This document shows positions 48,223 to 49,178 of a stretch of 64,000 nucleotides of DNA, piece by piece. Under the pieces are notes generated by a model that saw only the letters and a list, made by a program, of their open reading frames with translations, was not told the DNA's origin and searched no databases. Both the position numbers and the translations under genes were made by a program. The stretch's first letter is position 1, and each line of letters begins with the position of its first letter. Origin of the DNA: Curvularia clavata (Eukaryota); contig CP089280.1 in assembly GCA_023920165.1 (NCBI GenBank), positions 1 through 64,000 on the forward strand, written 5' to 3'.

Positions 48223-49178
48223 TTACTATCCCTCATATAGCGTTAGTGAAGATGCTTTACTCTAACACTCTAGAGACCAAAGTCAGGTAACGTACACACT
48301 ATACCATAGTAATTAGTTAAGTGTCTTGTATATCTACTGTAGAAATGGATTCGTCCACTTACATTCTACATAATTAGCAGCTGTTAGTAAAGTCTCTTCT
48401 AGGTCTATCATAGAGATAGAGATGTAGTTGTTAAATCTACTTACAACCTATATCGTTGGCAGCTATTAGTAAAGTCTCTTGTAAGTCTACTTTAAAAAGG
48501 TATTAATTCTACTTACACACTATACCACCACTAGCTATTAGTAAAGTCTCTTATAAGTCTATCATAAGAAGGTATCTAGTCTACTTACAACCTATACCAC
48601 TAGCAATTAGCATAGTCTTTTATAAGTCTATAATAGAAAGATATCAGGTCTACTCACACCCTATACCACCAATAGCTATTAGTAAAGTCTCTTATAAGTC
48701 TACTGTAAAATAGTATTAGCTCTACTTACACACTGTACCACCACTAGGTATTAGTAAAGTCTTTTATAAGTCTATTATAAAAACGTATTAGATCTACTTA
48801 CGTTCTATGCCACTAGCAATTAGCATGTTCTCTCATAAGTCTATTGTTAAAGATATTAGATCTACTTACACCCTAAACTATCGTTAGGTGAGTTTATTAT
48901 AGAAATGTATTGGATCCACTTACACACTATACCACCACTAGTTATTAGTAATGTCTCTTATCAGTCTATCATAGAACGTATTAGATGGACTTACAAACTA
49001 TTCCATCAGCAGCAATTAGTAAAGTCTCTATTAAGTGTATTATGGAGTAAGTACTCGTAACCTAACTTACTCCTCTAGCGTTCAGGTCTGTTTCCTGGCT
49101 TTCTTTCTTTGCCTGTGGAACGGCTGCTGCATAGAGCAATGATGGTAAGAATACACTAAAAAGCATAATAAATCTCAT
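48223..49178 (-). CDS. Secreted 47-aa Cys-rich peptide precursor encoded by 13 exons, eleven of them single codons; product MRFIMLFSVFLPSLLYAAAVPQAKKESQETDLNARGFCGNCGVCVNC
   Basis: Exon 1 is 49178-49071 (36 codons). The 3-nt exons are 48997-48995 TTT, 48926-48924 TGT, 48872-48870 GGT, 48804-48802 AAC, 48732-48730 TGT, 48660-48658 GGT, 48591-48589 GTT, 48519-48517 TGT, 48447-48445 GTT, 48365-48363 AAT and 48298-48296 TGT. The last exon opens with TAA at 48225-48223. All 12 introns have a GTAAGT/GTGAGT/GTACGT donor, a CTAAY branch point and a YAG acceptor. Confidence 0.85.
48226..49070 (-). repeat. Diverged tandem array of about 70-bp units (one intron plus one 3-nt exon each)
   Basis: Plus-strand unit resembles CTACTTAC-NNN-CTATACCACCACTAGCTATTAGTAAAGTCTCTTATAAGTCTA... 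Intron lengths are 73, 68, 51, 65, 69, 69, 66, 69, 69, 79, 64 and 70 nt. Confidence 0.92.

Follow-up and report, generated by a model that had tools for sequence, protein, structure and literature searches.

Sequencing contigs join eleven consecutive single-codon exons of a fungal gene for a predicted cysteine-rich peptide

On the minus strand of the 64,000-nt stretch of contig CP089280.1 analysed here (positions 1 to 64,000, hereafter the window) lies a small gene in which a conventional first exon is followed by eleven consecutive exons of exactly 3 nt, each spelling one codon of the Cys-rich core of the encoded prepropeptide. Contigs assembled from two public sequencing runs contain these codons joined to one another, to exon 1, and to the stop codon, with all twelve introns removed. 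We consider it highly probable that this is a real, expressed fungal gene, with the structure, splicing, and encoded prepropeptide described below, a judgement that leaves aside any link to the UstYa-family gene next to it. At the level of the transcript, the contigs confirm that the spliceosome can link eleven consecutive 3-nt exons and so assemble a whole, bioactive-looking core one codon per exon.

Gene architecture and joining of the codon-sized exons

The gene starts with an ATG at 49178, and its first exon encodes MRFIMLFSVFLPSLLYAAAVPQAKKESQETDLNARG. A preliminary description of the locus had proposed a 108-nt exon carrying a signal peptide and a propeptide up to LNAR-G and ending at GTAAGT, which matches 49178-49071, followed by twelve intron-like segments of 51-79 nt, each with a donor, a branch motif, and a YAG acceptor. 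All twelve sets of signals were found, the gaps between acceptor and next donor are exactly 3 nt, and all eleven triplets agree with the proposed reading F C G N C G V C V N C; the TAA expected immediately 3' of the final acceptor is there as well, the acceptor ending at 48226 (Table 1). Donors are GTAAGT in 10 of the 12 introns, with one GTGAGT and one GTACGT, and acceptors are TAG in 11 and CAG in one. Every intron has a CTRAY branch-point candidate 11-18 nt upstream of its acceptor.

This arrangement stands out from the surrounding sequence. The pattern YAG-NNN-GT[AG]NGT has 13 matches on the minus strand of the window and 5 on the plus strand, and 11 of the 13 are the array itself. A stricter pattern, which demands two micro-exons in a row, matches four times in the window, always within the array, and no match to it arose in any of 100 dinucleotide-preserving shuffles. 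Retention of any one intron would bring in an in-frame stop (10 of 12 introns) or, where the length is not a multiple of 3 (the other two), a frameshift; the peptide is thus encoded by the fully spliced mRNA only. Two other readings of the repeat were rejected. As unspliced coding DNA it has stops in all unit frames on both strands, as judged by eye, and no open reading frame (ORF) of 90 residues or more. As a set of C/D-box small nucleolar RNAs within the intron units it was dismissed, again by eye, the box-like motifs lying just 3 nt apart.

Twelve sequencing runs matched the window; none is recorded as RNA, and seven (X1 to X7) were guessed to be RNA. Contigs from X1, X2, X7, and X11 were compared with window positions 47000-51200. 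A 207-nt contig from X2 and a 151-nt contig from X7 both connect position 49071 to position 48225, omitting 845 nt. Between these points both carry the same 33 letters, which translate on the minus strand to F C G N C G V C V N C. The two runs come from different studies and bear different organism labels. The splicing foreseen in the preliminary description, with the twelve units removed and the triplets joined to exon 1 and the stop, is therefore what the assembled contigs contain, and the junction string that it gave for a search of RNA-seq reads recurs in both at 32 of 33 letters. The sole mismatch falls at the third position of the first codon, where the contigs have C and the window has T, a synonymous difference (Phe). 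Otherwise the flanks of the joined stretch are identical to the window, over 47 + 127 nt for the X2 contig and 20 + 96 nt for that of X7. Because the 31-letter words from which the contigs were built are absent from the genomic sequence, the joined molecule existed in the libraries. A second X2 contig lacks the canonical 60-nt GT..AG intron at 50398-50457 in the neighbouring UstYa gene, and X2 was therefore treated as cDNA; X7 offers no comparable control.

Several features of these data weigh against reading the contigs as spliced transcripts of this gene. The RNA status of X2 and X7 is a guess; the evidence consists of assembled contigs of low depth (2.7 and 4.4); the contig data are silent as to DNA runs that might contain the joined form; and at 48995-48997 the contigs have TTC for the TTT of the window. 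The last of these may mean that the transcripts stem from a slightly different strain or copy, or that the window contains an error. Taken with the guessed status of the runs, the one-letter difference would also suit an origin of the joined sequences in DNA, such as an intronless allele or a retrocopy, but we regard this as extremely unlikely. The neighbouring gene has lost its intron in X2 too, cDNA is a far likelier source than the exact loss of 12 + 1 introns from DNA whose flanks are otherwise identical, and even a retrocopy would need the splicing predicted here.

X1 (48364-48555) and X11 (48208-48650) contain unspliced pieces of the array, which may derive from DNA or from pre-mRNA. X2 and X7 leave the array interior uncovered, and this lack was not used as evidence. 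One X11 contig of depth 2 has G>T at 48316, a change that on the gene strand affects the C in the CTAAT branch motif of intron 11; either a sequencing error or a variant weakening this intron may lie behind it.

Intron definition is typical of fungi with short introns, and we propose that each intron of the array would be recognised singly in this way, through its strong GTAAGT, CTAAY, and YAG signals. Since a 3-nt exon cannot hold the complexes of a 3' and a 5' splice site together, neighbouring introns would have to be removed one after another. Nonsense-mediated decay (NMD) would then clear partly spliced RNA. Because the stop codon directly follows the last exon junction, established NMD rules predict that the fully spliced mRNA should escape decay and that partly spliced forms should not. 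The gene offers a compact natural substrate for questions about splicing: in what order introns are removed where exon length precludes exon definition, how closely splice sites can be spaced, and what part NMD plays.

Table 1. Features of the peptide gene and its neighbourhood, in window positions unless another locus is named
Feature	Position	Strand	Evidence or remark
Exon 1, 108 nt; start codon, predicted signal peptide, propeptide to LNAR-G; phase 0 end at GTAAGT	49071-49178	-	Sequence; last 47 nt in X2 contig (49071-49117), last 20 nt in X7 contig
Intron 1, 73 nt; GTAAGT..TACTAAT..TAG	48998-49070	-	Sequence; skipped in X2 and X7 contigs
Micro-exon TTT (Phe)	48995-48997	-	Sequence and contigs; TTC in X2 and X7 contigs
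Intron 2, 68 nt	48927-48994	-	Sequence and contigs
Micro-exon TGT (Cys)	48924-48926	-	Sequence and contigs
Intron 3, 51 nt, shortest; branch candidate ACCTAAC 11 nt from acceptor	48873-48923	-	Sequence and contigs
Micro-exon GGT (Gly)	48870-48872	-	Sequence and contigs
Intron 4, 65 nt	48805-48869	-	Sequence and contigs
Micro-exon AAC (Asn)	48802-48804	-	Sequence and contigs
Intron 5, 69 nt; CAG acceptor	48733-48801	-	Sequence and contigs
Micro-exon TGT (Cys)	48730-48732	-	Sequence and contigs
Intron 6, 69 nt	48661-48729	-	Sequence and contigs
Micro-exon GGT (Gly)	48658-48660	-	Sequence and contigs
Intron 7, 66 nt; GTGAGT donor	48592-48657	-	Sequence and contigs
Micro-exon GTT (Val)	48589-48591	-	Sequence and contigs
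Intron 8, 69 nt	48520-48588	-	Sequence and contigs
Micro-exon TGT (Cys)	48517-48519	-	Sequence and contigs
Intron 9, 69 nt	48448-48516	-	Sequence and contigs
Micro-exon GTT (Val)	48445-48447	-	Sequence and contigs
Intron 10, 79 nt	48366-48444	-	Sequence and contigs
Micro-exon AAT (Asn)	48363-48365	-	Sequence and contigs
Intron 11, 64 nt	48299-48362	-	Sequence and contigs
Micro-exon TGT (Cys)	48296-48298	-	Sequence and contigs
Intron 12, 70 nt; GTACGT donor, CACTAAC branch candidate	48226-48295	-	Sequence and contigs
Terminal exon; TAA (48225-48223) right after last acceptor, 3' untranslated region to at least 48099	48099-48225	-	X2 contig 48099-48225, X7 contig 48130-48225, no other letters in either
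Conserved element of the 3' untranslated region (about 56 nt)	Window 48133-48188; L065 611-663; L081 46-98	-; +; -	Covariance, model R1
UstYa/DUF3328 gene, divergent; exons 50028-50397, 50458-50542, 50616-50955 (264 codons)	50028-50955	+	Pfam PF11807; X2 contig
284-codon ORF	46951-47802	+	No Pfam match; nearest Atlas clusters are Ascomycota MARVEL-domain membrane proteins (score 0.94, a lead only)
M43 peptidase fragment	46165-46503	-	Domain match
Flavin amine oxidase	54120-55736	+	Domain match

The predicted peptide and the neighbouring UstYa gene

The spliced mRNA encodes a 47-residue prepropeptide. We read it as a signal peptide followed by an acidic/basic pro-region of 16 residues and a core of 12 residues, in which four Cys recur in an xxC rhythm. 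Its N terminus is hydrophobic and, judging the translation by eye, has an AXA-type site at A17-A19, where the signal peptide would be cleaved. Entry into the secretory pathway is most likely: the prepropeptide would enter the endoplasmic reticulum, and a protease would remove the pro-region, a cut after LNAR giving the candidate mature peptide GFCGNCGVCVNC. The precursor has neither a canonical Kex2 KR site nor RR; KK and AR are present. A search of 5.8 billion proteins with the leader peptide and 12 upstream bases yielded no candidate among proteins of 22-70 residues. Translation, secretion, cleavage, and modification are predictions from sequence, which counts against the account given here.

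The gene that diverges from the peptide gene, with 849 nt between the two start codons, matches Pfam PF11807 on two ORF pieces (E=1.3e-23 and 5e-05). Its third exon has two HxxHC motifs, which we take to be the mark of the UstYa family. Beyond the intron removed in the X2 contig, a second UstYa intron is predicted only. The best named relatives of the UstYa protein are from Exserohilum (64%), Dothistroma (58%), and Pyrenophora (57%), and an old-yellow-enzyme ORF has named relatives of at most 67%, nearly all from Pleosporales; these matches suggest a Dothideomycete-like fungus and not a truffle.

In the excerpts available from one account of the dikaritins (PMC9233826), their precursors are described as repeated multi-core proteins with a signal peptide, cut by Kex2 and cross-linked through Tyr, or through Phe in victorin. 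The likeness to ustiloxin, phomopsin, asperipin, and victorin, as far as that text goes, lies in a candidate N-terminal signal peptide, a UstYa-family neighbour, a short core, and an aromatic residue. The window precursor differs in having a single core, no KR, no Tyr, four Cys, and codon-by-codon encoding.

Could the UstYa-family oxidase process or modify the peptide, giving a product like the peptides that are synthesized ribosomally and modified post-translationally (RiPPs)? We think this quite possible, although we stop just short of calling it probable. The core might instead simply be oxidised to disulfides, the product being an ordinary small secreted Cys-rich peptide, with two disulfides or with a metal-binding, antimicrobial, or signalling role, and the UstYa gene merely adjacent; we regard this as possible but on the doubtful side. 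In its favour, the core has no Tyr, and the precursor is without the two dikaritin features of repeated cores and KR sites. A UstYa gene stands beside the peptide gene in the window only: the 1.1 kb upstream of a related gene in a metagenome contig (L081, described below) contains none, and the contig of a second, partial relative (L065) is too short to judge. Four Cys recur in the cores of the window and L081 genes, as disulfides or metal binding would predict. Set against mere adjacency are the divergent arrangement over a spacer of 849 nt, with transcripts of both genes in X2, and the fact that UstYa enzymes act on signal-peptide precursors, the Phe of the core having a parallel in the Phe-linked victorin (PMC9233826, in part). 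Within ±8 kb of the peptide gene, no other features typical of dikaritin clusters were found.

Homologous genes, array origin, and metagenome arrays

To place the array, metagenome contigs were scanned with a generic pattern of two consecutive 3-nt exons. At least 122 stretches matched, among them at least 46 non-redundant arrays with six units or more, or 47 once the window array is counted; these metagenome arrays are known here from DNA alone. Two of the loci listed are relatives of the peptide gene, L081 (complete) and L065 (partial). The L081 gene has a 105-nt first exon, MRFAVLGAMLLASLAIALPNPSKLEAKSIEDRQVP, that ends in phase 0 at GTAAGT, followed by fifteen micro-exons that read CPSGCICGPSGIPACF, one being 6 nt long and the other 14 being 3 nt, and TGA comes right after its sixteenth intron; three of its acceptors are AAG. 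The L065 contig starts inside an array whose end reads C H N C C L D, followed by the last intron and then TAA. The cores of the window, L065, and L081 genes differ widely; those of the window and L081 have four Cys each.

The three loci also have in common a block of about 60 nt in the 3' untranslated region (3'UTR). The outer stem of the element within it pairs GTT plus TTG, CCA, or CTA with CAA, TGG, or TAG plus AAC, so that among the window, L065, and L081 three adjacent pairs are changed on both sides with complementarity kept; the element is probably structured. A covariance model (R1) scores 83 bits at the window element. Across 396,680 bases (the window and 122 metagenome loci) it found only its three source copies, besides a weak match in L011 (E=0.79), and an Rfam search of window positions 47000-50000 gave no match. 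Given the like plan of L081 and L065 and the common 3'UTR block, the window gene is a member of a small family defined by a signal/pro exon, a Cys-rich array of codon-sized exons, a stop after the last intron, and the 3'UTR element. One result tells against this membership: BLASTP of the window leader against the L081 leader gave no alignment, so that homology rests on architecture and the 3'UTR element. Both leaders are so short and so diverged that BLASTP cannot align them. The UstYa pieces, the amine oxidase, and the ORF at 46951-47802 had no tblastn match in the 122 metagenome loci.

All twelve units of the window array, including the first and last introns, align with one another, and their splice signals are thus shared by descent. 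Tandem Repeats Finder reported repeats at 72, 141, and 213 nt; the 213-nt period is present in 2 copies at 85%. Pairwise intron identity ranges from 51 to 90%. Units I02, I05, and I08, which precede Cys codons, are 85-90% alike; the introns of I04 and I07 are 81-82% alike while their codons, AAC and GTT, differ at all three letters; and I06 and I09 are 81% alike. These alignments show that the array grew by tandem duplication of "intron + codon" units, partly, as the similarity within I02/I05/I08, I04/I07, and I06/I09 indicates, in blocks of three units. Such blocks agree with the xxC rhythm of the peptide.

The composition of the array departs from that of the window as a whole. GC content is 0.33 against 0.46, TpA/ApT is 1.82 against 1.05, and (CpA+TpG)/(ApC+GpT) is 0.56 against 1.09, a bias like that of repeat-induced point mutation (RIP) by threshold values that we presume to apply. 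The array thus shows a RIP-like transition bias, yet its splice signals survive, and so do the four TGT codons, each with a RIP-prone TpG inside. RIP-type changes (CpA>TpA and TpG>TpA) would turn GTGAGT into GTAAGT, CTGAC into CTAAC, and CAG into TAG, all still valid splice signals, and may in this way explain why the signals are near perfect. Four AT-rich blocks of the window (1-2000, 14001-16000, 22001-24000, and 60001-62000) have a composite RIP-like index of 1.0-1.3, similar to that of the array.

A young, RIP-damaged tandem repeat derived from one intron might be transcribed and spliced without having any function. The RIP-like composition and the homology of all units fit this idea, as does the fact that the peptide is so far a deduction from sequence. 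We nevertheless find it very unlikely. The preliminary description had observed diverged unit interiors beside splice signals that vary only in permitted forms, and this holds: interiors are 51-90% identical, yet in all 12 units donor, branch motif, and acceptor are retained, as is the spacing of 3 nt. The four TGT codons are intact, the one difference between window and transcript is synonymous, and the homologues preserve the plan, with a stop directly behind their final intron and a 3'UTR stem that covaries.

Wider comparison of the metagenome arrays brought out three regularities. First, stop triplets are rare. In the 42 listed arrays with at least 3 distinct triplets there are 2 among 485, where position-specific base frequencies predict 25.5 (binomial 1.7e-9, the units not being independent). 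Second, in 35 of 43 arrays (these 42 and the window array) triplet diversity exceeds that of the intron flanks, near as well as far, and in 21 it does so more than 1.5-fold. Third, differences between intron copies are biased toward transitions, with an overall transition/transversion ratio of 1.48 against 0.43 for triplet differences, and are transitions only, or almost only, in L113, L097, L084, and L114. Some arrays appear young (L113 1-2145, L097, L084, L114, and L023), with intron copies differing by 0.08-0.12 per site, nearly always through transitions, and 3-nt exons by 0.5-0.8, at a transition/transversion ratio of about 0.4. Duplication and neutral drift cannot give this contrast; diversifying selection on codons, homogenisation of introns, or both would be needed. 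Among the listed loci, the families of intron units are locus-specific, save for L055/L113/L114 and pairs on the same contig, which points to many independent local expansions. A single mobile "introner" family was considered and dropped, unit families not being common to different loci. These arrays also bear on genome evolution, as a case of how tandem "intron + codon" units arise and stay alike, yet change codon.

Codon-sized exons are not confined to secreted-peptide genes in this set. The phase of four arrays (L027, L023, L061, and L081) was judged by hand; of 41 arrays, 34 start at the edge of a contig or open with a donor that the pattern does not cover. In L027 (1376-3508, plus strand) a NACHT ORF runs in phase 0 into a 31-unit array, and in L023 (minus strand) a 451-codon ankyrin ORF (465-1829) does the same. 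The array of L061 (2995-3550, plus strand) runs in phase 0 into a HET-domain ORF, and that of L060 (2280-3721, plus strand), of 21-24 units, has a NACHT ORF upstream. L066 was also counted with the arrays that lie beside NACHT, ankyrin-repeat, or HET-domain ORFs. By their sequence, these arrays fit the class reported for NOD-like receptor (NLR) genes of Tuber, and the scan as a whole suggests that the architecture is common in environmental fungal DNA.

As a control, 596 Gb of prokaryote genomes were scanned with the pattern used on the metagenome contigs, and 102 stretches matched. In all 37 prokaryote arrays of six or more units the triplet is constant (1-2 kinds), the near flanks are conserved (about 0.05), and the far ones are random (about 0.74). 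This is a repeat-spacer layout like that of CRISPR arrays, mostly from Nostocales: in L130, L131, L157, L183, and about 30 other prokaryote loci, the repeat contains TAG-NNN-GTAAGT and recurs with a period of about 70 nt between random spacers. Arrays of this kind form a false-positive class for pattern scans of micro-exon arrays. One metagenome locus, L005, is of the repeat-spacer type and was excluded.

Every internal exon being 3 nt long, skipping any subset of micro-exons stays in frame. The array might therefore be mainly a diversification device, as proposed for the nank genes of Tuber, acting through in-frame skipping, by which one gene would give a family of peptides, and through unequal crossing-over, favoured by the homology of the introns and shuffling codons from generation to generation, with the full form as one product among others; we consider this unlikely, if well short of negligible. 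It would account for the excess triplet diversity in 35 of the 43 arrays (the window not among them), for runs of identical codons, which point to unit duplication, and for the quite different cores of the window, L065, and L081. But X2 and X7 include every one of the eleven micro-exons, and the joints listed comprise none in which a subset is skipped, although rare variants are lost from contigs; that four Cys are conserved in number also suggests a defined product. In our reading, which keeps the fully spliced form as the product, the architecture may still serve evolvability, through duplication and deletion of units, turnover of codons, and possibly variation at the level of splicing. The triplets of the window array, one of the eight exceptions, count against our reading, being no more diverse than the intron flanks (0.51 against 0.45 and 0.56).

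Relation to known systems, and other features of the window

The preliminary description knew of no gene with a run of single-codon exons, and in this it was mistaken. The NACHT-ANK "nank" genes of Tuber melanosporum are credited with tens or dozens of codon-sized, 3-bp mini-exons (Iotti et al. 2012, Fungal Biol 116:261, as quoted in passages of PMC4986451, PMC3689799, PMC9815663, and PMC13449251), and the C-terminal recognition domain encoded by these arrays is said there to be diversified by alternative splicing. On the evidence of those passages, both systems have many consecutive, symmetric 3-nt exons that always keep the frame, short spliceosomal introns, and repeat-like arrays, and both belong to filamentous ascomycetes. 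Unlike the window gene, where the array spells the whole core of a 47-residue, presumably secreted prepropeptide, the Tuber arrays sit in large intracellular NLR genes. The window gene further differs in its stop right after the last intron, its UstYa neighbour, and the full inclusion that alone was seen; its locus has neither NACHT nor ANK, and the fungus is, by best named protein matches, Dothideomycete-like and not a truffle. In the literature searched, codon-sized exons were mentioned only in connection with Tuber nank, with no instance for secreted peptides, RiPP precursors, or UstYa, and a search for tandem or consecutive 3-nt exons returned, Tuber nank apart, isolated micro-exons only.

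Such isolated cases include a 1-nt exon in Fusarium CYP621A, with support from the Sequence Read Archive (PMC12940212, in excerpt), and single 3-nt exons reported in animals and plants. From what these sources give, the spliceosome, that of filamentous ascomycetes included, can join exons of 1-3 nt; the exons concerned are single ones inside ordinary genes and not eleven in a row spelling a peptide. The micro-exon genes (MEGs) of Schistosoma, as presented in the abstracted part of bioRxiv 10.1101/2023.06.21.545858, encode secreted products through short symmetric exons of 3-81 bp and have introns of up to 5 kb. They resemble the window gene in architecture only, with a secreted product (predicted here) and a body of symmetric micro-exons between conventional end exons. 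They belong to animals, their introns are long, and most of their exons exceed 3 nt; they do not consist of tandem copies of a single intron and have no homology to the window gene. The repeat domains of fungal NLRs (WD, ANK, and TPR) are described in passages of PMC4986451 as evolving in concert, with hypervariability at a few positions and with exposure to RIP. Comparably, the metagenome arrays have near-identical introns, which differ mostly by transitions, and freely differing codons, but the unit described there is a protein motif of 30-40 residues, whereas here it is non-coding except for one codon.

Runs of 3-bp exons are thus not categorically new, truffle NLR genes having precedence. 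What is new is the gene class, small, secreted by prediction, and RiPP-like, with the whole core so spelled; the fungal lineage; the conserved 3'UTR element; and the transcript-level confirmation. The architecture is now found in a second gene class and a second fungal lineage. As a tentative generalisation, which we hold to be rather less likely than not, arrays of codon-sized exons may be a recurrent fungal way to build and rapidly vary short peptide segments, with near-identical introns as handles for recombination through which single codons are duplicated, deleted, and shuffled, in-frame skipping as a splice-level library, and the 3'UTR hairpin marking a subfamily of secreted peptides. 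If so, the class would span secreted-peptide or RiPP cores (window, L081, and L065) and the tails of NACHT, ANK, and HET proteins. Genes of this kind escape gene finders and spliced aligners, and for this reason fungal catalogues of secreted peptides and RiPPs, which look for precursor ORFs beside UstYa, are probably incomplete.

Further features near the peptide gene are listed in Table 1; a 171-nt contig from X2 falls on the ORF at 46951-47802. Elsewhere in the window, weak and fragmentary matches on the minus strand at 42749-43292 probably mark a decayed pogo/Tc5-like transposon; they are to a DDE_1 endonuclease and to the DNA-binding domain of a Tc5 transposase. At 8540-9934, also on the minus strand, three adjoining ORF pieces match a Tle1-like (DUF2235) hydrolase of the type VI secretion system (E down to 1.7e-46); this is an intron-split fungal gene of the Tle1-like (DUF2235) family.

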